In this document: one piece after another, positions 29,216 to 53,490 of the stretch
Layout: each line of letters begins with the position of its first letter
Numbering within the stretch: position 1 is the first letter of the stretch
Source: a virus
DNA length: 64,000 bases
Virus record (IMG/VR): IMGVR_UViG_3300008952_001422
Span: 63,032 to 127,031 of that record
Direction: 5' to 3' (one strand)
The notes under the pieces: generated by a model
Seen by the model: the letters and a program-made list of their open reading frames with translations, nothing else
The model's database searches: none
Told to the model about the DNA's origin: nothing
Made by a program: the position numbers and the translations under genes

Positions 29216-29216
29216 A

Positions 29217-29456: not shown

Positions 29457-29458
29457 GT

Positions 29459-29581: not shown

Positions 29582-29586
29582 TGGCG

Positions 29587-29835
29587 TTAACTCTTTTTTG
29601 TTTTTATCACCTTCTTTGGTTTCTCAGCAGTTTTTCCAGTCAGCATTGCTGATGGCTTTTCAGCAGTTATAGCCTTCTTTTTTGCAGTTGGCTTTTTCGC
29701 TGTCATGGCTTTGCTTTTGGCAGGTGCTTTCTTACTTTTACCTGACAAATATGATGGTGTATATCCCGCCGGGCTTACTCCTTTGCCAAAGAATAGTTCT
29801 GTTAATGTTGGCCACTCACTTATTGGTTTCCACAT
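29587..29835 (-). CDS. Lys/Ala-rich histone-H1-like protein
   Basis: TAKKP/TAEKP repeats; ATG 29835 with AGGAG SD. Confidence 0.55.
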   Translation of the reverse strand: MWKPISEWPTLTELFFGKGVSPAGYTPSYLSGKSKKAPAKSKAMTAKKPTAKKKAITAEKPSAMLTGKTAEKPKKVIKTKKS

Positions 29836-29836
29836 T

Positions 29837-31012
29837 TTATTTCTCCTTATTAAATGATGTATCACCTGGATAAATTGGTATCATTGCACCAGGTTTACGT
29901 TTTGGTATTTTACTGTCTGCACTACTGACACAACTGTCACTAATACAAACTTTAGGGGCATCAAATAACTTGAACCCACTCTCTACATACCCAAGTGGCT
30001 TATCCGCACAACTGTACGAACGTTTTATTGAACCATCTGGCTCCCTAATAATGATACCTTTGAACCCACTAGTACATTCCCATCCCTTAAACTTATTAAA
30101 GTTAAAGGCATTAAAACGTTCTGCTTGGTCCATGTACCATTTCTTTCCTTTACTATCTTGAAATTCTACTTGCATAATTGGTGGAACAGACTTGTCATCT
30201 CCGTTATCTATATCCATTTTCCACATACCTACTTTAGGTTTTGGTCTCGTAACTTTTATGCCAGTTTCTTTCTGTAATTCTGTAGTGTAGTCACGTTGCG
30301 GCATGCCATTACGCATTGTTTCTAATTGTTTATCAGTGTACCCAGACACAACAAACGAAGCAGTTGGGTCACTCTGAGGTTTTAGTGTAACATTTATCCC
30401 ACGGTTATGAAAGTACATTGCATTATCCCAATCTCTATCAAACCAGTCAGGTACTAAAACCATATTGATTGTTACTTGTACATCATGTTCCATACAGAAC
30501 AATAACTTGTCTGCAAAGACTACCTTCTCTGCGTATTCAGTATGAAATGATGCAGTAATACTTGCTCTATGCATCTTAGCAACAGTATCACAATATGTCT
30601 GATGCCATTTCATATTACGTGACATATTAGTTGTCATATGTACTGATGTATAATTTGTATTCTCTACATCATTTGCTATGTGATTGAGTATGTCCAGATA
30701 TCCAGGATGGAATGTTGGTTCACCACCCGACAAACTGAAATGAAATGAATTGAAACCATTGCCTCTTGCTTGTCTTTTAATCTCGTCAATTGTTGCTAGA
30801 CATAGTTCAGTCGGTCTATGGTCTTTTCTATCACTTCTAGCATACGGCCAACAATAAGAACACTTATAGTTACAGAATCTTCCCAGTAACCAACTTACTG
30901 AAAACAAATCTCTATATAATAGTGTTCGTTGTCCTACACTAACAAGGTCATCATATGGTATCTTAGTGAAATCATATTGTGACCAATATAATTCATCTTT
31001 TTCTTTATTCAT
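29837..31012 (-). CDS. radical SAM protein with C-terminal Cys cluster
   Basis: CNYKCSYC, SGGEPT, C-terminal C...C...C...C. Confidence 0.9.
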   Translation of the reverse strand: MNKEKDELYWSQYDFTKIPYDDLVSVGQRTLLYRDLFSVSWLLGRFCNYKCSYCWPYARSDRKDHRPTELCLATIDEIKRQARGNGFNSFHFSLSGGEPTFHPGYLDILNHIANDVENTNYTSVHMTTNMSRNMKWHQTYCDTVAKMHRASITASFHTEYAEKVVFADKLLFCMEHDVQVTINMVLVPDWFDRDWDNAMYFHNRGINVTLKPQSDPTASFVVSGYTDKQLETMRNGMPQRDYTTELQKETGIKVTRPKPKVGMWKMDIDNGDDKSVPPIMQVEFQDSKGKKWYMDQAERFNAFNFNKFKGWECTSGFKGIIIREPDGSIKRSYSCADKPLGYVESGFKLFDAPKVCISDSCVSSADSKIPKRKPGAMIPIYPGDTSFNKEK

Positions 31013-31389
31013 TTACGACTCATTCCACATGGCTCATTAAACGTAACATTAAAGAATCGTTGTTTCGTTTCATATGCCTGTTCAATTCTCTTATAATCTA
31101 TTCCAACTGCACTTAAAATGTGGCGCATATCTTCTCTGTCTTCATCATTCATTTGCTCTCGTACTTGGTCTTTTACATCTTGTGAAATCATATCATAGAT
31201 ACTACCATAACACCATTCACAAAATGTAACTGGTATTACACCAAAGTATCCTTGCATTCCACCACGGTCTTCGTCATATTCACTATTACAAACACTACAC
31301 GTTGATGGTGGTGTAAATGTTAAAGTATCATTGTCCTGTATAGTCTTTACATTCGTCTTTTTCATTTGCTCTCCTGTTACGTTCAACAA
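31009..31389 (-). CDS. Zn-finger-like hypothetical protein
   Basis: CSVC...CEWC. Confidence 0.5.
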   Translation of the reverse strand: MLNVTGEQMKKTNVKTIQDNDTLTFTPPSTCSVCNSEYDEDRGGMQGYFGVIPVTFCEWCYGSIYDMISQDVKDQVREQMNDEDREDMRHILSAVGIDYKRIEQAYETKQRFFNVTFNEPCGMSRK

Positions 31390-31497
31390 TATATCTATAC
31401 CATTTCATTAACCAAAGCACTCTTTGAGGATAGTGGTCAGGATTAGGTATATTTTCTTCTCCAAAATAATCAATAAATCCTTGTATTTCTTCGTCAC

Positions 31498-31815
31498 TCA
31501 TAGTGGTTTATCTCTTTCTTCTTTTGCACAGTTTGTTTGACAAACTTCTAAGCCTGTCATATTATTTTCAATCCATTCAAAGATTGGACCTTCTATAATC
31601 TCTTCCATAGAATAATGATGTATATTATGATACTTCTTATCTATGCCTGATTCATTCCATAACCCAGTCATTCTTCTTGCAATGCCAAACCAACAACAAG
31701 GTAATACATATCCCTTTGATGTGATGTAAAGATTTCCCATTGTCTTATGGAATGTTCCTTTGCCATTTCCAATCGTTGCTTTACATTTAGGTTCTATTTC
31801 AAAAGTCTTGGTCAT
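31498..31815 (-). CDS. stand-alone SPASM/Twitch Fe-S domain
   Basis: PKC...YITSKGYVLPCCW...C.TNC; no CxxxCxxC. Confidence 0.7.
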   Translation of the reverse strand: MTKTFEIEPKCKATIGNGKGTFHKTMGNLYITSKGYVLPCCWFGIARRMTGLWNESGIDKKYHNIHHYSMEEIIEGPIFEWIENNMTGLEVCQTNCAKEERDKPL

Positions 31816-32522
31816 GCAGTTACTCCTTCATAACCTGCCGGCAAAACGATTTCATCTATTTCATTCTCAGGATTAGTATTTCTAAAAGACTTGATAACTA
31901 CAAATCTTTCAAATTTCTCTGCTTCTGATAACTTTTTAATGTCTGCTATCTGATGCTGATTCCATTTGAATACAATAAATTGCCAACCTGCCCTACCACC
32001 TGAAGAGATATATGCTCTCCAGTTCTTCTGTAAAGTTTTCCAATCAACATTCTTTCTATAGAGATGATTAGTTTCTTCATCTCCATCTATTCCAAAAACA
32101 ACGGTCAGACGATTATTCAATTCTTTAGACAGTTTCCCTAATTCACTCCAGAAACTTTCATTTCTTGACCCACCGTTAACATGAACCCAAATGTTTTTCT
32201 CTTTATTATCTAAGTAATAAAAATATTTTATAATTTCTATTACATCTGGATTTATTACAGGTTCATCAACATTACCACACAAAACTATTTCATCTAAGTG
32301 TGTCCATTTATTTGGTAAAAAAGTCTTCTTTATATCTGCTATTGATAGAAAAGTATTGTTTAGTTCAATATCATAATCTAATGTAAAATCTTTTCGTTCT
32401 TCAGATGTTTCATTCTGAAGTTCAATCATATAGTTTCTTTCACATTGTGAACAGAAAGCATTACAGTAGTTGGTTATTTCTAACTGTAACCGTCCTATAT
32501 TACCTTCTTTTGCCCAAATCAT
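31812..32522 (-). CDS. radical SAM core (no SPASM)
   Basis: EITNYCNAFCSQC, CGNVDEP, FGIDG. Confidence 0.85.
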   Translation of the reverse strand: MIWAKEGNIGRLQLEITNYCNAFCSQCERNYMIELQNETSEERKDFTLDYDIELNNTFLSIADIKKTFLPNKWTHLDEIVLCGNVDEPVINPDVIEIIKYFYYLDNKEKNIWVHVNGGSRNESFWSELGKLSKELNNRLTVVFGIDGDEETNHLYRKNVDWKTLQKNWRAYISSGGRAGWQFIVFKWNQHQIADIKKLSEAEKFERFVVIKSFRNTNPENEIDEIVLPAGYEGVTA

Positions 32523-32525
32523 CTA

Positions 32526-33329
32526 TCACTCTATGTCCAGTTCTTTCCAGTCTTTAAGAGAATCTATTGCTGAATAGTTGTATATCTCTGCTGTTGCCCA
32601 TTCTTTCTCAATACACCACCAACATCCGTTACATGGTTCTGTAAAGTAATTAGTTTCTTCAATCCAACCTTCACAAGACCTAGTTAATGAACCAAGGTCA
32701 AGAAGTTTGCCATATTTTTTATAAAAGGCCAATACTATTCTTTTGTCTGAATGAATAAATGGTAAGTATTCTGTGTGGCGGTCGCATTTAGATTCTGCTC
32801 TTTCATCAATCCACCATTGACGATTAGTCCAATCTCTACGTTCTGCACGTCTGGGCCATCTCTTTCTCCAAACTGGCTTACCAATTTCTTCAGGTGGATT
32901 AACAGTTACACCATTGAATAATGCTGTTATGTTATACTTCTTAACCATATCCCATGATAATCTAGTTCCATTATCGATATAGTCTTTTGCTGTTGTAGGT
33001 CTAATCATATGCTCACCAAATTTGACATTTGGAAATTCTTCTTTAACAAAAGCAAGTGCTTTTTTGGCATGATGATGTTGCCATGGCTTTTCTTCGTGAA
33101 TACATGACCAGATGTAGATAGTAACATCTAAATTGTTCTTATCAATGTGATATGCTAATAGCCATAACAATATTGATGAATCCATACCACCTGACATTCC
33201 AATGCCAATGTTTTTGTGAAAGCCCCATTCTTTTGATTCGAATGGCAACTTTATTTTGTATTCTTCGGGATGTACTTCTTCACAATCGTTCCCTCTTTTA
33301 TATACGATTGCTGTGTCTTCTACTATCAT
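32526..33329 (-). CDS. QueC-like PP-loop ATPase
   Basis: SGGMDS; TRSCE...CNGCWWC. Confidence 0.75.
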   Translation of the reverse strand: MIVEDTAIVYKRGNDCEEVHPEEYKIKLPFESKEWGFHKNIGIGMSGGMDSSILLWLLAYHIDKNNLDVTIYIWSCIHEEKPWQHHHAKKALAFVKEEFPNVKFGEHMIRPTTAKDYIDNGTRLSWDMVKKYNITALFNGVTVNPPEEIGKPVWRKRWPRRAERRDWTNRQWWIDERAESKCDRHTEYLPFIHSDKRIVLAFYKKYGKLLDLGSLTRSCEGWIEETNYFTEPCNGCWWCIEKEWATAEIYNYSAIDSLKDWKELDIE

Positions 33330-33330
33330 T

Positions 33331-34536
33331 TTAATATATTCCTTTTTTGGTTAGTTTTATGTTCAAATCGGAGCACCTCGTTGTGCATACTTTTAGTTTT
33401 GGATTATTTTCATCGCCATATTCATTAGAAAAACTGTCTTCTAAATCTTTAGTAAAGAAGTCATGACTTATTATATCATGAAATGAATGCGAATGCAAGT
33501 TGTTCCATCCTTCATTGTACTTTTTAGTGAATCTGAGCCAGTTTTCTCGTTCTCCAGCATCAAATTCGGTTTTATATTGATAATTTGAATTCATCCAACA
33601 GCATCTCCATACAGAACCATCATGAGATATTTGATATCTATTATTGGCTCCCCATATACACGTAATGCCTGCAGTTTCTCTTATTTTCTCTAAGTTCTGA
33701 TGTGCATCAAGTTTTGTGTCAATTGGAATATCCTTGATGACTTCTTTTGCCTTCTTTAAGTTTTCATTAACTAATTCTTCACTAATGTTCAGCAAATCTT
33801 CATCTTCTTCTTTCATCTTATCGAGTTCATTCAATTTTTCACTCAAAGCAATCTGTACTGCTTTTTGTTCAACTCTTTGAATTCTGTTTCTTTGAAATTT
33901 TTGAAATCCATGTTTTGCGGCTAGTATCTTTGCCTGTTCCTCTAGTTCGTCATTGAAATCAAAAGGAATCATTTTCCATACAGCCTGACCACCACCACTA
34001 ATAAATGCTTCTGCATTTTCTATTATTTTATCAAAGTCTGTGGAAATTCTGTACATATTCTGTGTTTTGTTATCTATGCCATCTAAGTCAAACATTACAT
34101 GATGTCTATTTGGTAGATGTTCGTTTAATATTTCACCAAGTTTTTTCCAAAAGGCTGGTGTCTTATATGAACCGTTTGTTGAAATAGTCATATCGTGTAA
34201 TCCATTAAACTCAGGACTTAATTGTCCTATCTTCTCGTCACCAAATGGCTCAACGTCACCTTTTAGTTTTGAGGCTGAATATTCTATCATTTCTAAAAAG
34301 TCTGGATGAAAAGGACTATCACCAAAACTTCCATCGTATGTCATATACTTCACTTTAGATTTCTCAGCAAGGTCATCAATAAGTTTATTGTGTACTTCTA
34401 AAGGCAAGTTCCAGTTCTTAGGTGGAGCAGATACTAAATCTGTATTTGGATTAAATACTTTATGTCTAATACAGCCAGGACATTTTGCTTGGCAGTTAGA
34501 CGTTACCTCAATCGTTATTTCCATATCTCTAATCAT
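33331..34536 (-). CDS. radical SAM protein with C-terminal SPASM/Twitch
   Basis: CQAKCPGC; C...DGSVWRCCW...CTTRC. Confidence 0.9.
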   Translation of the reverse strand: MIRDMEITIEVTSNCQAKCPGCIRHKVFNPNTDLVSAPPKNWNLPLEVHNKLIDDLAEKSKVKYMTYDGSFGDSPFHPDFLEMIEYSASKLKGDVEPFGDEKIGQLSPEFNGLHDMTISTNGSYKTPAFWKKLGEILNEHLPNRHHVMFDLDGIDNKTQNMYRISTDFDKIIENAEAFISGGGQAVWKMIPFDFNDELEEQAKILAAKHGFQKFQRNRIQRVEQKAVQIALSEKLNELDKMKEEDEDLLNISEELVNENLKKAKEVIKDIPIDTKLDAHQNLEKIRETAGITCIWGANNRYQISHDGSVWRCCWMNSNYQYKTEFDAGERENWLRFTKKYNEGWNNLHSHSFHDIISHDFFTKDLEDSFSNEYGDENNPKLKVCTTRCSDLNIKLTKKGIY

Positions 34537-35698
34537 TTATATAATTCCATACTTTTGGTGCCATTGTTTCACATGATACATTATATAGTTCATCCTGTAG
34601 TCGAACTAGTTCTTTAAATTTGTTACTATCAGTTGTTCTTTTACCTTTCAATCGTTGGGCAAATTCAGCAGTGAAATCATTCATAATTAAATCATCTAGT
34701 ATTTCATCTTTCGTTTCTTCTTCTAAATTTACAATATCCAATGCTTGTGGCCAATGAACAAATGTTGTTCTTATATTTACTTTTTTTGTTGGTATAGTTG
34801 CCTTAATGTCCAAGAAATCATTGTATATTTGGTTCATATAAAATGCATGATACGCCGTTGTAGTACACACAAATAAGAAATTGTGAACAAGTGGTGCTAC
34901 TTCCTTAATGTTATTTAGAACTGTCTGATAGTCTCCGTCTGTTCTAAAGTAGTTAAATAAGTCACCTGTTCCGTCTAATGATACTGTAACACTTACTCTT
35001 TTGAAATGAGGCCATAATGTTTTAACTGTCCAACCTTTATATTCTAGTATACTCATGTTAGTATTATAGACCAGAGATATCTTTTTCGTATCAATTCTCG
35101 GGTCATCAATCATTCTTTGTAATGTCTTATACATATCTCTTGTATAGAATGGTTCACCACCAGAAAACTCAATGTTCTCTACTGTAGGTAATACATTTTC
35201 AAATAGGTCATCCATAACTCGGTCGTCTGGAATCTCTATCTTGTTTGTAGGAAAAGAGATATGACTAAAATTGAAATCTTTTCTTAACTTTAATTCTATT
35301 GTTGGATTATCTTTACCAGTCTGTTCAAATCTAGAGTTTGATGATGTATCACAATGTCTACATTTATAGTTACAGGCACGTGTCATCTTCAGTTGTAAAT
35401 CTCTTATATGAATTGTATCTGAATCATAATCTGGCTCTGAATGAATAGTATTCTCTAGTGACCTAGTTCTATACGAAGATAATCCAGACTCTTCCTGTAT
35501 CTGACAATCAATACAACCTGCAGGCCATTCATCGTTTCTTAACTGCTGTCGAACTTTAATAAAGTCGCTGTTGTTAATCACTTGTGATGGTAGTTTATCT
35601 AAATCAGATTCTACTAAATCATTTCGTTTGAATCTAAAGCAAGGAGCATATCCACCAGACTTTAAATCTAAATGTGACCATGCATATTTACATTTCAT
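34529..35698 (-). CDS. N-terminal Twitch radical SAM protein
   Basis: N-terminal C..PC..CIDC; CNYKCRHC; GGEP; SLDG. Confidence 0.9.
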   Translation of the reverse strand: MKCKYAWSHLDLKSGGYAPCFRFKRNDLVESDLDKLPSQVINNSDFIKVRQQLRNDEWPAGCIDCQIQEESGLSSYRTRSLENTIHSEPDYDSDTIHIRDLQLKMTRACNYKCRHCDTSSNSRFEQTGKDNPTIELKLRKDFNFSHISFPTNKIEIPDDRVMDDLFENVLPTVENIEFSGGEPFYTRDMYKTLQRMIDDPRIDTKKISLVYNTNMSILEYKGWTVKTLWPHFKRVSVTVSLDGTGDLFNYFRTDGDYQTVLNNIKEVAPLVHNFLFVCTTTAYHAFYMNQIYNDFLDIKATIPTKKVNIRTTFVHWPQALDIVNLEEETKDEILDDLIMNDFTAEFAQRLKGKRTTDSNKFKELVRLQDELYNVSCETMAPKVWNYIND

Positions 35699-36987
35699 TG
35701 TAGTTCTCCTGCTTCGTATCTCTGTTGTATATATTTAAGTGAGAAATCTGGGTCTTTCATCATCTTATCTACTTCAGTATATCCCTCTAATTCAGTACAT
35801 AATTTATAAAGAATATCTTTTTCTTTCATTGCTTGTACTAACTCAGGATTATAATCTTCTATATTAGAATCATAATATTCTGTATCTAATAGATGAGTTT
35901 TTCTCAAAAATAAATACCATGCATATTCTTTTTCTTCTTGTGGTACTCTATTCTTTTTTAGTATTTTAATAGCCCTATCTATTTTTACTTGTGCGGCTGG
36001 TAAACGTTCTTTGCTTTTCCATTCATCTAATATCCATTGCTCGTACCAATCAGGTGCTAAGTGTGGACAATACTCGCCAGACTCTACCATCTTAAAAGAC
36101 ACAGACCAACTTGGATGGTTCTTAGCATAGTAATCCATATCATCTGCAAATCCATTTAGATTTAATGTACTGTATGTCGAATGTATATGTCCCTTTTCTA
36201 TATTCTTTAATTGTGATAGATATTCTTCATAGATGTCTAATGATTCTTTCCAACCTGGTGAACCCCAACGTTGATATGAATTATAATCATTACATCCATC
36301 CACTGAACCAGTCAATATGATTTTTCTGAAACGATTTAGTTTCTCAATCATTACATCATCTAATCTCTTTGTAGTGTTTGTAATTATTTCTAGTAACACA
36401 TCTTCTACTTTACATTTTTCAATCAACCAATCTATCAACTTTGGAAAGTTTGGTGAGAAGAATGGTTCTCCACCTAATACTTTAATCTTTGTTAGATGTT
36501 GCCAATCTACATTCAATGATTTTAGATATTCAATTCTTTGTTTTGGTATTGTTGTAGGTTGTCTACCTCGCATTCCTTTTTCATTTAATAGAAAGTCATC
36601 TCGATAATATAACTTACTTGAAAACAAAGAGTCACACATCTTACATTGTAGATTACATAGGTTGTCTAAACTCAATTCTATAGAACGTAACTTGTCAAAG
36701 TCTTCAGTTAATTTTGCTTGTTCTAATTTAAAATGTACATTATTGGCAGCCCATCGCATTGACTCATTACCTTCAGAATAACATAGAGAACATTCTTTCG
36801 ATTTCTTTCCCTCTAACATGTTCTTTCTTAGCCATCTATACTTATCATCGAATGGCTTCATTGCATCTTCTTCTATATGGTCTTCATCATTGCCTACTGT
36901 AAATCTACAGCAAGGTCTGGCAACATTCTTCATAGAAACTGCCATATGATTCCATGCTAACATACATACTACACCGTTATCTTTCAT
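35695..36987 (-). CDS. N-terminal Twitch radical SAM protein
   Basis: PCC...CSLC; CNLQCKMC; GGEP; SVDG. Confidence 0.9.
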   Translation of the reverse strand: MKDNGVVCMLAWNHMAVSMKNVARPCCRFTVGNDEDHIEEDAMKPFDDKYRWLRKNMLEGKKSKECSLCYSEGNESMRWAANNVHFKLEQAKLTEDFDKLRSIELSLDNLCNLQCKMCDSLFSSKLYYRDDFLLNEKGMRGRQPTTIPKQRIEYLKSLNVDWQHLTKIKVLGGEPFFSPNFPKLIDWLIEKCKVEDVLLEIITNTTKRLDDVMIEKLNRFRKIILTGSVDGCNDYNSYQRWGSPGWKESLDIYEEYLSQLKNIEKGHIHSTYSTLNLNGFADDMDYYAKNHPSWSVSFKMVESGEYCPHLAPDWYEQWILDEWKSKERLPAAQVKIDRAIKILKKNRVPQEEKEYAWYLFLRKTHLLDTEYYDSNIEDYNPELVQAMKEKDILYKLCTELEGYTEVDKMMKDPDFSLKYIQQRYEAGELQ

Positions 36988-38162
36988 ATCATCATTACCT
37001 TAAATCGGTCATCTAAATCTCTAACGTTTTCACTTCTATAATTGTCATATTTATTTTGCAATGCAACAAATTCCTTTCGGGCATATTCAGTATAAGGAGT
37101 ATCTCTTAAAATTTTTATTCCATTTTCGGCAGTATTAACTTTACTTCTTGTTGCCCAGTCATCTCTAGATTTGGGTAGTTCTTTGATATAGTTTTCTAAG
37201 TATTTTATTGACTTCTGTTTCAAGTCATTGGGTATACAAGCAATTGACATTCCAGTTGGCACCCATACTTGATTAATAATTACCTCTATACCAATATCCA
37301 TAAGTTCATTCCACCATTTGTCTAGTGTTACCATATTAATAGCAGTAGCAGTACATTGAATAGTAACACCACAATTAGTTGTAGGGTCATCTGATATTTT
37401 CTTATATACTAACATGTTTTGTTTAACGGTATTCCATTTGATACTGCTTTTTCTTTGAAACTCTTGTGTTGGTCCTGATGCATCTACTGATAGAATAACC
37501 TGTAGGCCTGCACCGCTACAAAATTTCATTAAAGTTTTTATCCATTTGTCAGAGGCGTTAGTTGCATTAGTTGTTACAAGAATTGGGATATTTGAATAAG
37601 TATCAGCAACATAGTTCATAAATTTTCTTATTTTTAAATCAATTGATGGCTCGCCACCTAGAATAGATATTTCTTCACAATGAGTCAAATCTAAATCATA
37701 TGCATCTGATGTATCTAAGTGTTTTATAAAGCCTTCCTCATGTGTTTTGATATGTTTTCCAAATTGTGCCCCAGCGGCTACAATTTCTTCTTCAAGTAGT
37801 GATGAAGATTGTGGACCACACATTCTACACATCATGTTGCATTTATTACCTGCTCTATAGTCTAATCGTATTATTTTATTTAAACCAGGTGCTTCATAAT
37901 CAACATCGTTATCCCATTGTTCGTAATACTTTCTTCTAGAGTGTCCACCAATTTTCTCGTTGTGTATACATTCTATACAACCTGGGTCAGTTCTGTCACG
38001 ATACATCATCTCTTTGAATCTTTTTAAGTAATCAGATTTAATATATTCTTCATATGTCCCCCAAAATGTATCATTTTTCCACTCACAACAAGGCTGACAT
38101 CCTTGAGTGGCTTCATATGCTAATCCTAACCATGGAGCATTACAGTAAGGTTTATCACGCAT
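36984..38162 (-). CDS. N-terminal Twitch radical SAM protein
   Basis: PCC...CIEC; CNMMCRMC; GGEP. Confidence 0.9.
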   Translation of the reverse strand: MRDKPYCNAPWLGLAYEATQGCQPCCEWKNDTFWGTYEEYIKSDYLKRFKEMMYRDRTDPGCIECIHNEKIGGHSRRKYYEQWDNDVDYEAPGLNKIIRLDYRAGNKCNMMCRMCGPQSSSLLEEEIVAAGAQFGKHIKTHEEGFIKHLDTSDAYDLDLTHCEEISILGGEPSIDLKIRKFMNYVADTYSNIPILVTTNATNASDKWIKTLMKFCSGAGLQVILSVDASGPTQEFQRKSSIKWNTVKQNMLVYKKISDDPTTNCGVTIQCTATAINMVTLDKWWNELMDIGIEVIINQVWVPTGMSIACIPNDLKQKSIKYLENYIKELPKSRDDWATRSKVNTAENGIKILRDTPYTEYARKEFVALQNKYDNYRSENVRDLDDRFKVMMI

Positions 38163-40618: not shown

Positions 40619-40627
40619 AATATATCC

Positions 40628-43511: not shown

Positions 43512-43539
43512 TTGTTACCTTCTGATATTATTATATCAG

Positions 43540-43547
43540 TATTTATC
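43540..43547 (-). promoter_or_regulatory. late-type promoter candidate
   Basis: GATAAATA on - strand in the 45-nt gap upstream of 43511. Confidence 0.45.
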
Positions 43548-43556
43548 TGTTGAATT

Positions 43557-44648: not shown

Positions 44649-45823
44649 TACTTTCTACCTATAACCATATAACGATTATATTCATCTAGTGCTAGTGTGC
44701 CCTCATATAATGTTTCAGATACATTTAATCTCTTAGAGAATTCTTCTAAACTAGATACTGTGTCTTCTGCATGTTCATGGTCTTCATCATCAAAATCATT
44801 GTTCTGCATTATAACTAACATGCCTTTTGGAATACCAGCCCACCATTTATCAAAGTTTTCAATGTGTTCACAACTAGTATTGATTACACATGTTGGAGCA
44901 CCGTCAGTTATCATTTCTTTATCGCCATTATACTTAAATGTTTCGTACATAAACTCACCAGTGTATATCAAGTTGTTTACATCCATTGTACTTGCTTTGA
45001 ACTGCCAATCATTTTGTGTATAACTTCTATTCAATGTTTCTGCTGGTAATGAACAACTCGCATCTATATCAAAACTTCGAATATTAGTAATCTTATTTCG
45101 TTCAAATAATATCGCTGGCAATACTCCATACCATCCAGCACATACATAAACCATATCACCTAACTCAATGTCTAAGTCTTTAATTGTATCACTTACCCAT
45201 ATCTTACTTCTTAATTGGCCTCTACTAAATGAATCTGTAAGTACTTTACCTTCAAAATTCTTAATCATATTTTTTAGATTTAACGGAATAGTGTATTTTT
45301 CTTCAGTCAATTTGTGTGCTAACTTCAGTATATTAGTTTTATATATTGTCACACTCTTTAGTGTTCCAATCCATTCATTTTCAGTATCGATTGCTTGTAA
45401 CACTTTGAACAACAGAAACATATCTGGTTCTGCGGTATTAGATATTAAATTCTTTATAGCACTTATAACTTCTTCATCTCTATTATCTAAGTTAATAATC
45501 AACTTGAATAGTAATTCAGTTTGTAGAGTTACAAAATTAGAATCACTAACTACATTTCGTAACGCATGTAATGCCTCATTATCATTAGCAATAGGCTCAA
45601 TAACTTTAAACAATACAAATATATTGTCTTCTGGTTTGCGTTCATATACTAGATTCTTTAACGCACTAACTGTTTCTCTATGTTCTTTGCCCAAGAGATA
45701 CGATGATAAAACAAATATATCACTTAATACTTCGGTATTTGCTACTCGCTCAAGACTATTCATTATAGGATATTTGTTACCATATAATATTGTTAATCTA
45801 TCTACTATTTCATGTGGTTTCAT
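44648..45823 (-). CDS. class I SAM-methyltransferase-like protein with N-terminal helical repeats
   Basis: AGWYG, SFDID, INTSCEH; repeated ALKNL..LFK helices. Confidence 0.6.
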   Translation of the reverse strand: MKPHEIVDRLTILYGNKYPIMNSLERVANTEVLSDIFVLSSYLLGKEHRETVSALKNLVYERKPEDNIFVLFKVIEPIANDNEALHALRNVVSDSNFVTLQTELLFKLIINLDNRDEEVISAIKNLISNTAEPDMFLLFKVLQAIDTENEWIGTLKSVTIYKTNILKLAHKLTEEKYTIPLNLKNMIKNFEGKVLTDSFSRGQLRSKIWVSDTIKDLDIELGDMVYVCAGWYGVLPAILFERNKITNIRSFDIDASCSLPAETLNRSYTQNDWQFKASTMDVNNLIYTGEFMYETFKYNGDKEMITDGAPTCVINTSCEHIENFDKWWAGIPKGMLVIMQNNDFDDEDHEHAEDTVSSLEEFSKRLNVSETLYEGTLALDEYNRYMVIGRK

Positions 45824-46815
45824 TATTTTAATCCTATCTTCATAAAGTATTGTTTCTTACCGATTGTTATAACACCAGTGTATTGTTCAAACGTCATAGG
45901 AAATGCCTTATTGAATGCCTGTGAACTACTGAATGGGCGATGAATATCTATATGGCCTGCTTCACCTATTAAAACAATCTTTCTTGTGTCTGGTAACATA
46001 TCATACCAATCATCTTGATTTTGTAACAAACTGACATTAGTATTAATAACTAATCCAGGAATTTCTTTGAATGCCTTAGATGTTGAACCATTTGGTAATG
46101 TAATCTCTAGATTGTTTTTTATATAATCAACATTAAACATATCTTGTGTTGATGCTTTGAATTTCCAATCATCTAGTACTTCTTTTTTCATCATTTCGTC
46201 TGCTAGAAACTTACATGTTCCATTTATATCTAAGTTTCTTATATTCTCTATTCGCAATGTAGTGTCAAGCAACATGGCTCCTATTAGTCCAATTCCACCA
46301 CCTAAAGTATAAACAGTTCCTAGATACTTTTCGCCAAATACTTTAACCATGTTTTGAATCATCCACGAATATACAATTGCATGTTCTTTATTAACAAATG
46401 AACTGATATCTACATTGGGATAACTATAAATCAAGTCTTTGAGTCTATCAACTATTCTATCATTGTCATCATTTGCTGGAAGAGTTACATGGGCAAGAAA
46501 TTCCATTGCTTGTCTATAATTTCCTAATTGCTGTGCTACATTTCTTTCAGAATACTTTTCTGCCATTTGTTTGTAATCATATTCAGCACCAATAAGTGGT
46601 CGAAATCTTTTTCTTTCAACAGTCTTTATTTGTATCTGCTCAACATATTCTGGAGTTTCATCTGGAAGTACAAATACTTCTTCAGTTAATGAACTATATA
46701 ACTCATCATTTGAAGTTATCTTTGATTTGTTTCTTCTCTGTCTTCTCTTATCTTTTATTGTTGATTTAGTCATTAGTATCTTCCTCGAACTTCTTATGCA
46801 ACCAGTCGTAATCAT
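45823..46815 (-). CDS. methyltransferase-like paralog
   Basis: LGGGIG, NLDIN, WKFKAST.D, VINT; similar to the downstream gene. Confidence 0.55.
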   Translation of the reverse strand: MITTGCIRSSRKILMTKSTIKDKRRQRRNKSKITSNDELYSSLTEEVFVLPDETPEYVEQIQIKTVERKRFRPLIGAEYDYKQMAEKYSERNVAQQLGNYRQAMEFLAHVTLPANDDNDRIVDRLKDLIYSYPNVDISSFVNKEHAIVYSWMIQNMVKVFGEKYLGTVYTLGGGIGLIGAMLLDTTLRIENIRNLDINGTCKFLADEMMKKEVLDDWKFKASTQDMFNVDYIKNNLEITLPNGSTSKAFKEIPGLVINTNVSLLQNQDDWYDMLPDTRKIVLIGEAGHIDIHRPFSSSQAFNKAFPMTFEQYTGVITIGKKQYFMKIGLK

Positions 46816-49528
46816 TAATTTTACTTAATGCATCTTCATCACCTGCATGTTTAGTCCCATAATCTCTTCCTGAGTTTGCTCCTTTGATTGAATATTCTCC
46901 GTACTTCGCACCATTATTTATTGTACACCACGTTTCTAAACGTTCATCTGTTTCATCTTTCTTAGACTTTTGAATAACACTTGATGATAGTTTGGTACAT
47001 TCTCTGAATGCTGACTTCCATGTGTCGTATGGATTAGTATTGAATGCTGTATAGTTTGCTGTACCTGGCATTGCTTTAAACTTATCAGAAATTGATGTTG
47101 TAAAGTCAACTTTCCATTCTTTTGCATCACGCACCAACTGTGTTGGAAATAGTTTCAATCCACCAAAACCATACACTAATCCGTTAATTGGATTTTTAGA
47201 TTTCCATACGTGAACTGTATCTTCATCCCATACTGTTGGAAAGTAATCAAACTCAAACTCATCAAGTAGAATAGCATCGGCATCAATTACATAAAACATC
47301 TTTGTGTCTGCTATTTCAGATGCTCGTTGATGTGCATTGAAGATACCCTTGACTCCGTGAACCCTCTTAGCATTTGGAACTCTTTCTAACAACTTGGCAT
47401 AGTTTGCATCTGCTTCTGGTTCTTTATAACTTAACATAACAACATCATACGGAATATCTTCTGTTCTTATATCTTCTGACTTAATTGGTTTCTTATTCTT
47501 AAAAGACATCTTTCTTAATTTGGCAGTATTTGGTTTAAGATGTTTTATTGCCTCTGCTGGAATTAATTTTAGTCCACCATATTGATGAATATATCCAGTA
47601 GATGGATTTACCTTCGGCCAAACATGGAAGTGTGATGCGTGATGTCTATCAACATAGAAACGTCTATCAAATTCATCCAAAACTGTTACATCATTATCGA
47701 TTGCCCAGAAATATCCAGTGTTTGTAAGTTTAGCGGCTTTCATATAACATTCTTCAAGTGTTCCAGTTAGCACCTCAACAGTCTTATCTTTTTTATATTT
47801 CTTAGTATTAGATGAATACATTCCCTCATCAAAATAGAATACTGGATGTCCAGTAACTTTCGATACTACCTCATCAACTCTAATAATATTCTTAAATCTG
47901 TCAAATGAGAAGTCATCTTTAGATGGTTTAAAACTAGCAAGATGTGGGCGATGAACTAGATATACACCAGCACCGGCATCTCCCTCAGATTTAAATGCGA
48001 ATACATTTTCAATTGAGAATATATCTGGATAGAAATCAAAACTAAAAGTATCTAATAGTTCTACAACAGTATCAACTACCCAATAGAAAATATGTTTCTT
48101 TGCTTTTTGATATGCACTATAAGGGTCACGAGTATGATATGTAGGAAAGTTATGTTTATCTGGAACACGTGATGCATATTCATCATGGAATATTATATTC
48201 TCTGAATGATAATCTATATTACTAAATGCTATACCACCATATCCTAAATCTTTCTCACCATCTCTTGTACTAAACTTCCAAAGATGTGTCGGACCAGTTT
48301 CATATAAGTCTGGATAAAAAGAATTAGAAACAGTTGAAGTTTCAGTCAAGTCTGGATTAATCATCCAAAAATTATATCCAGTTGCTTTGGGAATTGCTTC
48401 TTCAATTGTTCTTGCACTTATCTTTTGTATCTCTGGAATTCTACCGAGTACAACATCTACATCTTTCATTTTATCTTTAGTAGCATTTACTGTAGGTACT
48501 AATCGTACACCATTACGTACGACTTTGCCACTAGCAAGTTTGACATTAAAATTGTGAATGAACTCACGGTCATAACTCATTGGATAAAAACTTGTTCTAA
48601 AGTCTTCAACATCTTCGTGGACAAGCCAATACATATCACTATCAACCTTATGGTCAAAGTTGTGAAGGTCTTTAGTTCTTATAACTTCAAATTCTAAGTC
48701 ACTACACGCAGGGTCTTTTTCATAGACTGCTTTTCTTTTGAAGTTAAATATATCATATTCTTTTTCAGTAAACATAGGAGCATTCTTTGGAAACAATCCA
48801 ACGCCATGATACTCACGTGATAATTTCGTTACTGGATTCTCTTTTTGCCAGACTACCACTTTTTGTTTTTCTTTATCCAATCCAAATGCGAATGAATAAT
48901 CAAACTTAAATGAATCGTATATACTGGTGTTTGGCATGATTAGATAGTAAAAGTCAGTTCTTGCTTTTGCTCTACACTTCTCGTGTACCTCTAAACTATG
49001 TTCGCCATCTATCAAATTGATTGTGTAATTCTCTTGTAATCTCTTTAACTCTTTATATCCATATCCTTTATCCCAAAAGAATATATCATATGTTTCAGTT
49101 GTTGGTTTATAAATTACATTAGAGTCATGGTCTTTATATTCACCTGTTAGAAAATAGGCATCTCGTATATATGAGTCGTCATTTTTTATAACTTCTTTTG
49201 TTTTAAACAACTTGACACCCACAACACGCCGAAATACATTTCGTTCATCACAACTCCATAGATGTGTGATGTTATCATCATAACTATCAGTTTCAAAAGA
49301 AAAATCAAAGCCGTCATTAACCTTAACATCTGGGTCAACAACCCAAAAATGTTTGGTATTGGCTATAGAGGCAATCTTATTAATCGCTTCTTCCATCTTA
49401 GGATTCTCAAAATCCTCTAGATTTATCTTAACCATACGAAAAGACGGATACTTTTTCTGTATCTTGTCGAATCTTTCGTTAGTTTCTTTGTCTGCTTTGT
49501 ATGTTAAATAGTAACCATCGTATGCCAT
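46766..49528 (-). CDS. multi-repeat glycosyltransferase (GT-A)-like protein
   Basis: About 7 repeats of a F/Y-W/Y-V-V-D-x-D-like module; last has intact YVIDAD, GFGGLKL, WKSAFREC. Confidence 0.6.
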   Translation of the reverse strand: MAYDGYYLTYKADKETNERFDKIQKKYPSFRMVKINLEDFENPKMEEAINKIASIANTKHFWVVDPDVKVNDGFDFSFETDSYDDNITHLWSCDERNVFRRVVGVKLFKTKEVIKNDDSYIRDAYFLTGEYKDHDSNVIYKPTTETYDIFFWDKGYGYKELKRLQENYTINLIDGEHSLEVHEKCRAKARTDFYYLIMPNTSIYDSFKFDYSFAFGLDKEKQKVVVWQKENPVTKLSREYHGVGLFPKNAPMFTEKEYDIFNFKRKAVYEKDPACSDLEFEVIRTKDLHNFDHKVDSDMYWLVHEDVEDFRTSFYPMSYDREFIHNFNVKLASGKVVRNGVRLVPTVNATKDKMKDVDVVLGRIPEIQKISARTIEEAIPKATGYNFWMINPDLTETSTVSNSFYPDLYETGPTHLWKFSTRDGEKDLGYGGIAFSNIDYHSENIIFHDEYASRVPDKHNFPTYHTRDPYSAYQKAKKHIFYWVVDTVVELLDTFSFDFYPDIFSIENVFAFKSEGDAGAGVYLVHRPHLASFKPSKDDFSFDRFKNIIRVDEVVSKVTGHPVFYFDEGMYSSNTKKYKKDKTVEVLTGTLEECYMKAAKLTNTGYFWAIDNDVTVLDEFDRRFYVDRHHASHFHVWPKVNPSTGYIHQYGGLKLIPAEAIKHLKPNTAKLRKMSFKNKKPIKSEDIRTEDIPYDVVMLSYKEPEADANYAKLLERVPNAKRVHGVKGIFNAHQRASEIADTKMFYVIDADAILLDEFEFDYFPTVWDEDTVHVWKSKNPINGLVYGFGGLKLFPTQLVRDAKEWKVDFTTSISDKFKAMPGTANYTAFNTNPYDTWKSAFRECTKLSSSVIQKSKKDETDERLETWCTINNGAKYGEYSIKGANSGRDYGTKHAGDEDALSKINDYDWLHKKFEEDTND

Positions 49529-49577
49529 TAAGTTCTCATTCCAAAATCAGTAATCATCTTTGTATTATAACAGATTT

Positions 49578-51134
49578 TTAGTCGGATGTAAAGACTTTTA
49601 CACCATAATGTTTAGAGAAATCAATAGCATCTTGTTCATCGTTTACTATTGGTTTCCCTTTTATATTTAGTGAGGTGTTAACTAGCATTGGGCAGCCAGT
49701 TTCTTCTTTAAATCTAGATAACAACTGATATAACTCTGGATGTTGTAGTTGATTGACAGTCTGTACTCTACTGGTATTATCTACGTGTATAATAGCAGGA
49801 AACTCTTTAGGAAACTTACATTTTGCGACAAATTGCATGTATGGAGACTGTGTTATATTCTTAGGCATTTCAAAGTATTCGTGTACATCTTCTTCTAAAA
49901 TCATTGGTGCGAATGGTCTAAACTTCTGTCTGCGTTTAATTTCATTCATTTTATCTTTAATTAGTGGTCCTCTTGGGTCTGCCGCCAGCGTACGATTACC
50001 TAACGCTCTTGGACCAAACTCTGCTCGACCATTTGCAATACCTACTATCTCACCTTTTAATAGGGTTTTTAGTGTTTTTTCAACTGGATAATCACCCTCA
50101 ATATTGTAACCAAGATATGGTGTTTTCCAATTAAGATTCCAATCTGCTTTATTAAATTTTTGTGCAACTCCTATACAACTTCCTGCATCACCAGGATTTG
50201 GCATAATCCAAATATCTTTGAAACCATATTTTGATGTTATCATACTATTGGCTACACAATTTAATGCACATCCACCCATCAATACTAGATTTGTGCTAAA
50301 TGATACTGTTCGGTGTGCTAACTTTATTACTCTATCGAACATTATCTCATATATCTTTTGTGTTGCGGCAGCCAAATCAAACAAGTCTTGTTCTGATGTT
50401 AAGTCTGGAAAAATCCAGTTACATCCTCTATGTAGATTTTGTTTAAATGTATGTAGTTTATGATTGTGTGTTGTTATACCCAATTCGTTCATAAGTTGAT
50501 GTTTTAATGATGTGCCCTTGTATTTTCTATCTGCATTTCCATAGGCTGCCATTCCCATAAGAATATACTCATCTTCGTTTGCTTTTAATCCTAATCTCTG
50601 CGTCATTGCACTATAAAATAATCCAAAACTATGTGGATATCTTTGTGAATATACCTTAGACAATTTACCACCAGAACCTTGCCAGATTGTTAATGTCTCC
50701 CATTCACCAATACTGTCTATCACAACAACTGCGGCATTAACAAATCCACTCGTGTGATATCCACTTGAGGCATGAGTATAATGATGGTCTTGATAAACTA
50801 TCGGTAAATCTTTCAATTCTGGAATTTGTTGTAAGTATCTTTTAGGTAACTCATCCATATCAAATGCTGTTTCATATTGACCTGCATATAATTGTCGAGT
50901 CTTCTTTTTGTATGGATTTTCATACCAAGCAATGACATCTGGTGTGCCATATTCTAGTGCGTTTTGAATTATCTCAGAGTTGAGAAGAGGGTCGTTTTTG
51001 ATTTTAGAGTAACGTTCTGAATGGGCCGCAAATAGAATTTCATTTCCTTTGACTATGCTAACCGAAGCATCGTGATTTAATGCTCCTGCTATTCCTAGAA
51101 CTGTTTTGTGATTATTTGTATATGAACGGGTCAC
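49578..51134 (-). CDS. carbamoyltransferase (NodU/CmcH/TobZ family)
   Basis: HDAS, HHYTHA, DSIGE, GGCALN, EFGPRALGNR, FRPFAP, NTSLN. Confidence 0.95.
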   Translation of the reverse strand: MTRSYTNNHKTVLGIAGALNHDASVSIVKGNEILFAAHSERYSKIKNDPLLNSEIIQNALEYGTPDVIAWYENPYKKKTRQLYAGQYETAFDMDELPKRYLQQIPELKDLPIVYQDHHYTHASSGYHTSGFVNAAVVVIDSIGEWETLTIWQGSGGKLSKVYSQRYPHSFGLFYSAMTQRLGLKANEDEYILMGMAAYGNADRKYKGTSLKHQLMNELGITTHNHKLHTFKQNLHRGCNWIFPDLTSEQDLFDLAAATQKIYEIMFDRVIKLAHRTVSFSTNLVLMGGCALNCVANSMITSKYGFKDIWIMPNPGDAGSCIGVAQKFNKADWNLNWKTPYLGYNIEGDYPVEKTLKTLLKGEIVGIANGRAEFGPRALGNRTLAADPRGPLIKDKMNEIKRRQKFRPFAPMILEEDVHEYFEMPKNITQSPYMQFVAKCKFPKEFPAIIHVDNTSRVQTVNQLQHPELYQLLSRFKEETGCPMLVNTSLNIKGKPIVNDEQDAIDFSKHYGVKVFTSD

Positions 51135-51228
51135 GTTTCTTTAGTTCCGCTAAACGTTTCTTCATTGCACGTTCTTGTTTAAACCATGTCCATGGATAGA
51201 TTAGAGTACGCCATATCTTCTTTATCAT
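51112..51228 (-). CDS. small basic protein upstream of the carbamoyltransferase
   Basis: Hand translation MIKKIWRTLIYPWTWFKQERAMKKRLAELKKRDPFIYK; ATGA overlap with 51225. Confidence 0.6.
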   Translation of the reverse strand: MIKKIWRTLIYPWTWFKQERAMKKRLAELKKRDPFIYK

Positions 51229-51956
51229 TTTTTCATTCCTCGTGTATTTTCAATATCAGCAAACAAAATATCAGCCCAATCCTTATGAGCCTCTTCGTTT
51301 GGATGCATGTATCGTTCATCTCCTTCTACTGGAAAGAACATTTTCTTATCGTACATGTAAGTAAAGAATGTTTGGTCTTCATATATACGAGTCATATCTA
51401 ATTGAGCCAATACATCTTTCATATCCGCTTGTTCGCATAACTCTGTAAAGTTTGTTGGTTCAAGTAGATTTGGTGTCAAGTTAAGACTGTTGAATATAAT
51501 ATATTCTAAATCATTAGCAACACAAAAGTTTTGTAGTGTTAATACTTGAATAAGATAATTGTGAAAGTCATAAACAGGTGACCAGAAATGTTTCATATAC
51601 AATTTGTTAAACTTATCTAAATCAGTATTTGTTTTTTCATCTAGTCTGATATTGCCGTGATATTCGTGTGATGGTATATTATGAATTAATATATTTTTAC
51701 TTTCAATGAAATGTTCTCTGCGATTTGGTGCAGATAAGCCAATTGCTACAAATGGTTTCTTTCCATTTGAAACATACTCTGAAACTTTTGTTATAGTTTG
51801 TCTAACAATGTATTGATTGCTAATTCCTCGTTCTGCGTCAGTTACTACATCTTCTTTGCTTATTTCGAGTCTCTCAGCCAACATAAAAGGCCATGCTTTG
51901 TCCTTATGTGCTAGTCCAGTACCATATGTGAAACTACATCCGTTTGCGTATAACAT
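51225..51956 (-). CDS. SGNH/GDSL-hydrolase-like protein
   Basis: ANGCSFT, G.SN, HPNEEAH. Confidence 0.7.
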   Translation of the reverse strand: MLYANGCSFTYGTGLAHKDKAWPFMLAERLEISKEDVVTDAERGISNQYIVRQTITKVSEYVSNGKKPFVAIGLSAPNRREHFIESKNILIHNIPSHEYHGNIRLDEKTNTDLDKFNKLYMKHFWSPVYDFHNYLIQVLTLQNFCVANDLEYIIFNSLNLTPNLLEPTNFTELCEQADMKDVLAQLDMTRIYEDQTFFTYMYDKKMFFPVEGDERYMHPNEEAHKDWADILFADIENTRGMKK

Positions 51957-53482: not shown

Positions 53483-53490
53483 GTTTTCTC

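Follow-up and report, generated by a model that had tools for sequence, protein, structure and literature searches.

What does a bacteriophage do with ten radical S-adenosylmethionine (SAM) enzymes encoded almost side by side? The question is raised by a gene island at positions 29837-51956 of the stretch of DNA analysed here (the window), which comprises the last 64 kb of the 127,031-bp IMG/VR virus record IMGVR_UViG_3300008952_001422 (CheckV completeness 35%). We favour, at a probability of roughly 0.6, a soluble pathway which edits and transfers unusual sugars in an uncultured marine jumbo myovirus. This reading is drawn from the family 2 glycosyltransferase (GT2) genes which neighbour the same enzymes in bacteria, from a protein R resembling glycosyltransferases of the GT-A fold, from the fold of a protein P, from a carbamoyltransferase S, and from the sugar chemistry known for radical SAM enzymes with a twitch domain. 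New in our analysis is a conserved core, defined in phages and Bdellovibrionota around one of the ten enzymes, termed N; the island, which is built around an unstudied radical SAM family, would be a variant of known sugar-tailoring clusters.

An earlier note on this DNA had described ten co-oriented genes with the CxxxCxxC motif, falling into three architectures. Both statements are borne out, as the motif is present in all ten translations, all ten genes lie on the minus strand within 29837-44648, and they comprise six enzymes with an N-terminal twitch domain, all above the cut-off of NF033640, a subfamily of D, F and O (26-35% identity), and A, which is of another type. The genes, together with the small gene B, are the following.

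29837-31012, minus strand: A, radical SAM enzyme of the 'other' type with a C-terminal Cys cluster, 391 amino acids (aa), motif CNYKCSYC, PF04055 at 48.3 bits
31009-31389, minus strand: B, Cys-containing protein, 126 aa, with relatives of 54-59% identity in loci L003-L005
31498-31815, minus strand: C, SPASM part of a split gene, 105 aa, PF13186 at 26.7 bits (cut-off 21.5)
31812-32522, minus strand: D, radical SAM core of the split gene, 236 aa, motif CNAFCSQC
33331-34536, minus strand: F, O-type radical SAM enzyme with a C-terminal SPASM-like domain, 401 aa, PF04055 at 35 bits
34529-35698, minus strand: G, N-twitch radical SAM enzyme, 389 aa
35695-36987, minus strand: H, N-twitch radical SAM enzyme, 430 aa
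36984-38162, minus strand: I, N-twitch radical SAM enzyme, 392 aa
38155-39261, minus strand: J, N-twitch radical SAM enzyme, 368 aa
39254-40618, minus strand: K, N-twitch radical SAM enzyme, 454 aa
41976-43511, minus strand: N, the most conserved N-twitch radical SAM enzyme, 511 aa, NF033640 at 429 bits
43557-44648, minus strand: O, radical SAM enzyme with GNFGDP and C-terminal PCCW/SPASM-like Cys motifs, 363 aa, PF04055 at 25.5 bits (E 1.8e-5)

The radical SAM family PF04055 (cut-off 29.5 bits) was passed by six of the ten; I (27.2 bits), N (28.8 bits) and O (25.5 bits) stayed below the cut-off yet matched at E<=2e-5, and D gave no Pfam match but is 35% identical to O. Against NF033640 (N_Twi_rSAM, cut-off 170 bits), G scored 219, H 186, I 211, J 204 and K 345 bits, the matches spanning nearly the whole 398-position model with the Cys-rich domain N-terminal to CxxxCxxC; the non-members A, D and O reached 37-42 bits only. 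These six island proteins and one encoded just upstream of the window thus belong to the family, at more than 170 bits and near full length. As NF033640 is merely catalogued, membership gives the architecture and not the reaction. The N-twitch paralogues are deeply diverged (20-28% pairwise identity), with the exceptions of I/J (43%) and K/N (32%), and from G to K the start and stop codons of successive genes overlap.

In the second subfamily, F is 26% identical to O over 388 aa and reaches 17.3 bits with SPASM (PF13186), under the 21.5 cut-off. O has no PF13186 match itself, but C aligns to its residues 266-312, and D aligns to its residues 8-196. D and C therefore read, by alignment, as one O-type radical SAM/SPASM gene split into two open reading frames (ORFs) overlapping by 4 bases. 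The split is preserved in loci L004 and L005 (238+107 aa, 85-89% identity), and the more distant orthologues in L024 and L028 are fused (347 aa); it may reflect either a two-subunit enzyme or a programmed frameshift. B had no match in Pfam, NCBIfam or PHROG, and a 57-aa ORF in 31328-31501 overlaps its listed TTG start, so that B may start later. Further small minus-strand ORFs lie at 29060-29865, between A and the aminotransferase-like gene (51 aa, previously regarded as a bL33 candidate, 79, 40 and 92 aa); the 79-aa ORF has a Ser/Thr/Gly-rich N-terminal part and a hydrophobic C-terminal helix.

Which of these genes are conserved can be read from their recurrence. N has 4085 homologues, the best 120 of them at 63-93% identity, and an alignment of twelve diverse N sequences has a mean column identity of 66%. 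Anchored on N, 131 loci were examined, 53 on viral contigs of up to 342 kb and 78 in bacteria; the latter came from a scan of one genome per prokaryotic species and are mostly from Bdellovibrionota, one of them an isolate. Neighbours were tallied within +/-10 kb of N, and the counts are lower bounds, as many loci are clipped by contig ends. Orthologue-level thresholds were applied in all rows below except the last, for which a looser clustering was used.

N: 65 of 78 bacterial and 53 of 53 viral loci
O: 52 of 78 bacterial and 50 of 53 viral loci
A: 51 of 78 bacterial and 25 of 53 viral loci, at 50-84% identity
P-like protein: 31 of 78 bacterial and 40 of 53 viral loci
Family of the C-terminal part of R, as stand-alone proteins of about 240 aa: 28 of 78 bacterial and 28 of 53 viral loci

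The conserved core thus consists of the three radical SAM enzymes N, O and A, the P-like methyltransferase-fold domain and the GT-A-like unit of about 240 aa which forms the last module of R. Protein family or fold, gene order and co-occurrence in phages and bacteria are direct observations here. The synteny across related phages to which the earlier note had looked is found around N, the order P-O-N...A being retained in the 53 viral loci, with paralogues between N and A whose number and kind vary; S, R, Q and the PP-loop genes are found chiefly among the closer viral relatives. In the bacterial loci N has 55-70% identity. The genes around N are not oriented alike in all of these loci, an indication of functional linkage maintained by selection and not of shared descent of one operon. 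Complete chromosomes of 2.2-3.0 Mb are among them, and neighbours such as rpoD and dnaG indicate that the loci are chromosomal.

The company of the core in bacteria points to sugars. In the cultured Bdellovibrio isolate (locus L094), five of ten scanned neighbour proteins are GT2 enzymes (PF00535) above the cut-off and a sixth passes Glyco_transf_7C only; other clusters of GT2 proteins are shared by 14, 11, 6 and 4 bacterial loci. The same isolate has eight N-twitch genes above the cut-off, of which seven lie in a stretch of about 36 kb. Among 201 genomes of the isolate's phylum, 8 had a strict N orthologue (E<=1e-100), and two of these eight had been added deliberately; N is patchy in that phylum and not part of its core genome. 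The earlier note had proposed a multi-step pathway building a modified glycan or chemical group on virion proteins, DNA or the host surface. The recurrence of the core radical SAM enzymes with GT-A-like and methyltransferase-fold proteins in the 131 loci, and with GT2 genes in Bdellovibrio, lends support to the pathway and its glycan character. Next to the radical SAM/GT2 island of the isolate, a fibre-like protein of 1355 aa is encoded (L094:17248-21315), with a Peptidase_S74 chaperone domain at its C-terminus (62.6 bits). A general link of the island to fibres was considered and dropped, since relatives of this protein occur in 3 of the 131 loci only (L094, L095 and L121) and the phage contig has only short repeat-like matches.

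At this point peptides have to be weighed as the substrate, as the radical SAM enzymes might install cross-links, epimerisations or methylations on a ribosomal peptide or a phage protein, in the manner of peptides that are made by ribosomes and altered after translation (RiPPs), with the transferases decorating it afterwards. The best partial NCBIfam matches of the enzymes do include the maturases PapB, SkfB, CefB and HxsB, all far below cut-off, and several small ORFs are at hand on the minus strand at 29060-29865 and 31328-31501. These ORFs are, however, neither Cys-rich nor repeated in the manner of core peptides, and they are not among the recurrent neighbour clusters; no PqqD/RRE-type Pfam domain is present in the ten radical SAM enzymes, although distant RiPP recognition elements (RREs) can escape Pfam. 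The identity of 60-70% which N retains between phages and Bdellovibrionota is more in line with a small conserved substrate than with a peptide that evolves fast, and the GT2 genes around the core in bacteria argue in the same direction. We therefore consider peptide maturation quite improbable.

A FastTree phylogeny of N with 112 rows, from which identical proteins and alignments of less than 400 aa (380 aa for K) had been removed, was midpoint-rooted, the root falling on the branch of the K paralogue. All 38 viral N rows fell into one clade of 47 (support 87), together with nine contigs of metagenome-assembled genomes (MAGs) labelled as other phyla; the other 56 bacterial rows, which nearly all bear the label Bdellovibrionota, take basal positions outside this clade. 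The nine MAG contigs (L108, L110, L113, L114, L115, L054 and L091-L093) have phage-like arrays, of 9-12 radical SAM genes in L108, L110, L113 and L114, and are labelled Rickettsiales, Gammaproteobacteria, Acidimicrobiaceae, Chloroflexota, Verrucomicrobiales, Planctomycetota, Bacteroidota and Neisseriaceae; since their N proteins lie inside the viral clade, they are probably mis-binned phage contigs. A Haliscomenobacter MAG (G003; loci L127 and L128) has two N-twitch arrays with 12 genes above the cut-off, each with a carbamoyltransferase 47% identical to S and without a strict N orthologue.

Among 50,697 deposited phage records, neither a megablast search with the 22-kb island nor a search with A gave a match. 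For O, tblastn found only Campylobacter phages CP220/F379 and Pelagibacter phage Mosig, at 23-24% identity over half of the protein, and for N there were only relatives of 23% identity in Vibrio phages K566/K567 and Ralstonia phage RsoM2USA. By these searches the core appears to be carried by no deposited phage of the collection.

The remaining members of the core, P and R, are encoded with Q directly upstream of O.

44648-45823, minus strand: P, helical-repeat N-terminal domain and class I methyltransferase-fold C-terminal domain, 391 aa; AlphaFold2 model with a predicted local distance difference test (pLDDT) score of 80.7
45823-46815, minus strand: Q, paralogue of the methyltransferase-fold domain of P, 330 aa as listed; 28% identity to P over 148 aa, E 3e-16
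46766-49528, minus strand: R, protein of tandem GT-A-like modules, 920 aa; the last module and a helical tail (about 690-920) form the conserved unit

In a Foldseek search against the PDB, the model of P matched TehB, NodS, CmoA and BioC at E about 1e-5 and a probability of 1.0. At least 460 PDB matches had E<=0.001; the 37 matches listed were nearly all SAM methyltransferases, and among these the target-normalised template modelling (TM) score reached up to 0.65. The 'MTase-like' pair of the earlier note is thus substantiated at the level of the fold for P, from a predicted structure, and through homology to P for Q. Neither protein matches a Pfam methyltransferase family, and PHROG gives P no function; at the position of the SAM motif (GxGxG) P reads AGWYG and Q reads GGGIG. 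Under the looser clustering the P/Q family was found in 42 viral and 32 bacterial loci, and close relatives of Q in viral loci only (17). With its listed ATG, Q overlaps R by 50 bases; a start about 14 residues further on, as in the homologues, would cut this overlap to 8 bases.

The last approximately 230 residues of R are 38% identical (E 7e-55) to the stand-alone proteins of about 240 aa which lie beside N elsewhere. A module profile built from 34 distinct stand-alone proteins was matched by R at the following residues.

3-131: module match, independent E-value (i-E) 3.5e-14
179-253: module match, i-E 3.7e-14
294-356: weak module match, i-E 0.028
475-515: module match, i-E 7e-5
574-663: module match, i-E 1.3e-13
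694-919: module match, i-E 2e-97

Of the seven GT-like repeats claimed in the earlier note, five hence stand at i-E<=7e-5, the last of them with a predicted GT-A-like fold, while a sixth is weak and a seventh, near 385-440, was discerned by eye only. A self-BLAST of R gave no repeats, the modules emerging only with the profile of the stand-alone homologues. The best part of the structural model, residues 691-835, superimposes on GT-A-fold proteins, which include both glycosyltransferases and nucleotidyltransferases, with Z 9.4-7 and a root-mean-square deviation of 3-4 A over about 130-140 residues. DxD-like motifs occur as DAD in module 7, DND in module 6 and DPD in module 1. Neither Pfam, with no CAZy-type family, nor PHROG, nor the PDB sequences searched with an R profile gave a match, and among 3555 homologues of the last module none is named and almost none has a precomputed Pfam domain. 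Residues 560-920 otherwise matched unnamed viral clusters only; a link to GT2 through a match of 0.86 to a cluster of which 32% of the members are GT2 was rejected, the score being too low to count. On the strength of profile and model, R is described here as a putative tandem expansion of a new GT-A-like family.

Weak Foldseek matches of R are nearly all GT-A proteins, among them the capsid glycosyltransferase A64R of PBCV-1. Together with R699 and R655 of Mimivirus, A64R represents the soluble, in part multidomain, GT-A enzymes of giant-virus capsid glycosylation among the structural matches of R; the similarities are weak (Foldseek E 2e-3 to 6e-3, Z 7.2-8.2), and to our knowledge such glycosylation systems work without radical SAM enzymes.

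Around and between the core genes lie enzymes which suggest further tailoring and which, in part, raise DNA as a possible target.

32526-33329, minus strand: E, PP-loop ATPase with SGGMDS, 267 aa; PF01171 at 17.5 bits, below cut-off; 26% identical to L
40628-41290, minus strand: L, PP-loop ATPase with SGGxDS, 220 aa; Pfam Asn_synthase 25.7 and QueC 24.9 bits
41283-41975, minus strand: M, flavin-dependent thymidylate synthase ThyX, inside the island; TIGR02170 at 152.9 bits (cut-off 87.9)
49578-51134, minus strand: S, carbamoyltransferase of the NodU/CmcH type, 518 aa; PF16861 at 186.3 and PF02543 at 139.1 bits
51225-51956, minus strand: T, DUF6071 protein, 243 aa; PF19547 at 50.6 bits

E and L share SGGxDS and a C-terminal CxxCWWC. 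L passes the whole-protein Pfam thresholds with no single stretch passing for QueC, and matches phrog_1550 ('QueC-like') at 35 bits; with the QueC equivalog TIGR00364 (cut-off 150.3) L scores 17.1 bits and E gives no match. The 'QueC-like' genes of the earlier note are therefore PP-loop ATPases but not QueC equivalogs. The family of L occurs in 22 viral and 5 bacterial loci under the looser clustering. S, whose assignment as a carbamoyltransferase in the same note is confirmed with both domains above cut-off, belongs to a family present in 23 viral and 9 bacterial loci; identity with NodU itself was ruled out (equivalog NF041651, 139 bits versus 1000). T, taken there for an SGNH protein, carries the motifs NGCSFT at its N-terminus and HPNEEAH at its C-terminus, and is possibly, judging from its translation, an SGNH-like esterase or acyltransferase. 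A search of the PDB sequences with a T profile returned chance-level matches only, and the sole library match is DUF6071, without a PHROG function.

The presence of ThyX inside the island and of dihydrofolate reductase (DHFR) nearby, together with the weak resemblance of the PP-loop proteins to QueC, might suggest DNA hypermodification, in which a bulky glycosyl, carbamoyl or amido group on a phage base would protect against host nucleases, R would be a DNA glycosyltransferase, and the radical SAM and PP-loop enzymes would act on the nucleotide or DNA. There is precedent, as phage thymidine and 7-deazaguanine hypermodification employs radical SAM, pyridoxal phosphate (PLP) and kinase enzymes, and T4-like phages glycosylate their DNA. 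However, ThyX stands beside N in only 7 of the 53 viral loci and is thus probably not part of the pathway, the QueC equivalog scores are far under the cut-off, and the same core lies among GT2 genes in bacterial chromosomes. Furthermore, neither tRNA-guanine transglycosylase (TGT)/DpdA (PF01702, 0 matches) nor a ThyA-type hydroxymethylase was found in the 127,031 bases of the record, which make up about 35% of the genome. DNA hypermodification strikes us as improbable.

The island is part of a larger unit. The co-directional block on the minus strand runs from 54810 down to 26662 (28 kb), beyond the 29837-51956 of the earlier note; the GC skew changes sign at both of its ends, neighbouring genes mostly overlap by 1-8 bases or are separated by at most 12 bases, and a divergent plus-strand gene begins at 55050, beyond the head of the block. 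The additional genes are the following.

52742-54810, minus strand: W (246 aa) and X (439 aa), the first two genes of the block, with same-strand gaps of 67 and 8 bases; no match in Pfam or PHROG
51967-52674, minus strand: U, IscA-type carrier (108 aa; PF01521, 70.6 bits), and V, IscU scaffold (126 aa; PF01592, 174 bits)
28048-29028, minus strand: aminotransferase-like protein (fold-type I PLP), 326 aa; PF00155 at 23 bits (cut-off 19.7), over residues 156-226 only
27280-28041, minus strand: TauE/SafE-type membrane anion transporter, 253 aa; PF01925 at 152 bits
26662-27267, minus strand: Asp_Arg_Hydrox cupin/2-oxoglutarate-oxygenase-like protein, 201 aa, the last gene of the block; PF05118 at 37.1 bits

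U and V lie directly upstream of T, and the Fe-S_biosyn and NifU_N families of iron-sulphur cluster (ISC) assembly both exceed their cut-offs. Under the looser clustering the aminotransferase-like family is present in 18 viral and 12 bacterial loci. Relatives of the 201-aa cupin were seen downstream of A in 12 viral and 2 bacterial loci, and a related Asp_Arg_Hydrox family of 268 aa occurs in 14 viral and 4 bacterial loci. The TauE/SafE gene is absent from the recurrent neighbour clusters, and its membership in the pathway is thus uncertain.

A number of observations weigh against a sugar pathway. Enzymes with SPASM or twitch domains are at least as often peptide maturases, and N, O and A have no characterised relative in the searches made, as neither A nor an N profile matched any PDB sequence and the best NCBIfam equivalog scores of N, O and A are far under the cut-offs. 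The full-length model of R is poor (mean pLDDT 56), Foldseek gave no match for it at E<=1e-3, and the GT-A fold is also that of nucleotidyltransferases. No enzyme making or activating a nucleotide-sugar was identified within 26662-54810, and next to the island lie replication and nucleotide genes (PolB, DHFR, ThyX) and not fibre genes. Sigma-70-like and terminator-like sites occur at or below shuffle expectation, and TATAAATA is present 4 times in the window, with 10.2 expected, and 0 times in the island. Finally, Wzx, the initiating phosphoglycosyl transferase and Wzy/ligase are encoded hundreds of kb from the island in two bacterial genomes, so that a classical O-antigen or capsule route is not indicated, leaving protein glycosylation, a synthase-type polymer or a small molecule as options.

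The last of these options deserves attention in its own right, as the distance from Wzx and Wzy would suit a phage-borne cluster for a diffusible product, such as an aminoglycoside- or nucleoside-like pseudo-oligosaccharide acting on the host, on rival phages or on other microbes, which the TauE-type transporter might export. The enzyme set of twitch radical SAM, aminotransferase-like, carbamoyltransferase, methyltransferase-fold, PP-loop and GT-A-like proteins with a membrane transporter is in keeping with it, and aminoglycoside clusters are similar, for example in the carbamoyltransferase TobZ and in BtrN/AprD4. In the portion of a 2025 cyanophage paper accessible to us, a trio of radical SAM, aminotransferase and amidinotransferase genes is likewise speculated to represent 'antibiotic synthesis genes' (PMC12801897). 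Against such a product, TauE is not a recurrent neighbour, no enzyme for a cyclitol or nucleoside scaffold was seen, and the 920-aa R, with as many as seven GT-A-like modules in a row, points to an oligomer or scaffold and not to one or two glycosylations. A diffusible small molecule thus appears improbable to us.

Returning to the favoured pathway of sugar editing and transfer, we infer a scheme in which the sugar substrate, each of the reactions and the acceptor are proposed as follows. The three radical SAM enzymes N, O and A, the methyltransferase-fold protein P and the GT-A-like last module of R would form a conserved engine. Each radical SAM enzyme would cleave SAM at its CxxxCxxC cluster and abstract a hydrogen from a carbon of the sugar, which might be a nucleotide-sugar or already attached, while the auxiliary cluster would accept or give back an electron; oxidation, epimerisation, dehydration or deoxygenation, or C-C/C-methyl chemistry could result. 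P and Q would then methylate, and R would transfer the product. N, O and A might represent the invariant chemistry, and the diverged paralogues G-K, F and D/C lineage-specific edits. The PP-loop enzymes E and L might activate carboxylates for amidation, S would place a carbamoyl group onto a hydroxyl, and the aminotransferase-like and cupin proteins might add amino and hydroxyl groups. IscU and IscA could supply the roughly twenty Fe-S clusters which these enzymes would require. As acceptor we would guess, in this order, a virion protein, the host envelope, a small molecule or DNA.

How does this compare with known systems? A few antibiotic pathways are known to employ radical SAM chemistry on sugars, and the twitch/SPASM enzymes BtrN, DesII, AprD4, NeoN, HygY, SpeY and BlsE act on sugars or aminoglycosides. 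Of these, BtrN, DesII, AprD4, NeoN and HygY likewise combine a core with an auxiliary Fe-S domain and are encoded beside aminotransferases, methyltransferases, glycosyltransferases and a carbamoyltransferase (TobZ). However, their auxiliary domain is C-terminal, whereas that of N and G-K is N-terminal, and no sequence-level relation to the island enzymes exceeded family cut-offs. Our literature searches yielded no paper which deals with the function of N-twitch radical SAM enzymes or with this island, or which names NF033640 or a characterised member of it, in agreement with the statement of the earlier note that no characterised pathway has this composition.

Phages rich in radical SAM genes have been noticed before. 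Nishimura et al. 2017 described a T4-like environmental genome of 183 kb in which 12 radical SAM genes occur together with a gene for an A-type Fe-S carrier, and reported IscU and the A-type carrier as phage auxiliary genes (PMC5332604). According to Zaragoza-Solas et al. 2020 (PMC7029224), pelagimyophages have a variable 'host recognition cluster' with glycosyltransferases, and close genomes differ by radical SAM cassettes. The sections of both papers available to us mention the radical SAM genes but do not sort them into subfamilies, and give neither a conserved core nor counterparts in bacteria nor a function. As far as these sections go, the pelagimyophage cassettes lie in the host recognition cluster, whereas the present island belongs to a jumbo phage of the Atu_ph07/Rak2-like lineage and is not beside fibre genes.

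The phage itself can be placed by its PolB, the closest relatives of which are those of Sinorhizobium phage Phosso (48%), Agrobacterium phage Atu_ph07 (46%) and Rak2/CBB-like phages (42%). A tail-fibre-like protein of 1535 aa and a Lon-like protease are encoded upstream on the record. The kinship of PolB to that of jumbo myoviruses, together with these genes, indicates a fragment of a jumbo myovirus with a T4 core, the genome of which is probably well over 300 kb. Near-identical DNA is present in marine metagenomes from at least five further studies. By its sequence affiliations, the source is thus taken to be an uncultured marine jumbo myovirus of the Atu_ph07/Rak2-like lineage. Short contigs from four RNA-library runs of two studies (150-630 bases, mostly 90-99% alike) fall on island genes and cover K/L, ThyX, N, O, P, Q, R, S and IscU; such libraries may contain DNA and the contigs stem largely from relatives, so that they are no proof of transcription of this phage, and uncovered bins are uninformative.

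Beyond the block, the phage carries an unusually rich set of metabolic genes. On the opposite strand a tryptophan-halogenase-like protein (287 bits) and a beta-ketoacyl synthase are encoded at 17234-20744 and DHFR at 25742-26305. On the minus strand an APS-kinase-like P-loop protein lies at 57135-57605 (44.7 bits) and a peroxiredoxin at 60537-61073 (Redoxin, 102 bits). Just upstream of the window a second small gene set is found on the plus strand (G000:C1:53712-62673), with a 1240-aa protein whose N-terminus is cytidylyltransferase-like (phrog_395, 34.6 bits), an 834-aa protein without assigned function, and the seventh N-twitch radical SAM enzyme (gene 61423-62673, match 61432-62664, 195 bits); this set may represent a separate module for sugar activation or tailoring.

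The array of uncharacterised radical SAM enzymes makes up the main content of an island that is common in uncultured aquatic jumbo phages. With its five proteins, the core also occurs in a cultured Bdellovibrio isolate and is thus experimentally approachable; since no deposited phage of the collection searched carries it, the bacterium is the practical entry point. It might be speculated further, although we consider this rather unlikely, that phages and predatory Bdellovibrionota share a three-enzyme radical SAM pathway to a new class of radically edited sugars, for instance C-branched, deoxygenated or cross-linked ones that are subsequently methylated, amidated and carbamoylated, which a new GT-A family would install on the surface of the predator, on the fibres of virion or cell, with the N-twitch paralogues as a generator of diversity. 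If so, the paralogue array would serve an arms race over prey recognition or the evasion of immunity. Should the product be a small molecule or a DNA base, the island would represent a new kind of phage-encoded chemistry, and should it decorate a surface, this would matter for host recognition and for what infection costs in iron and SAM in the ocean.

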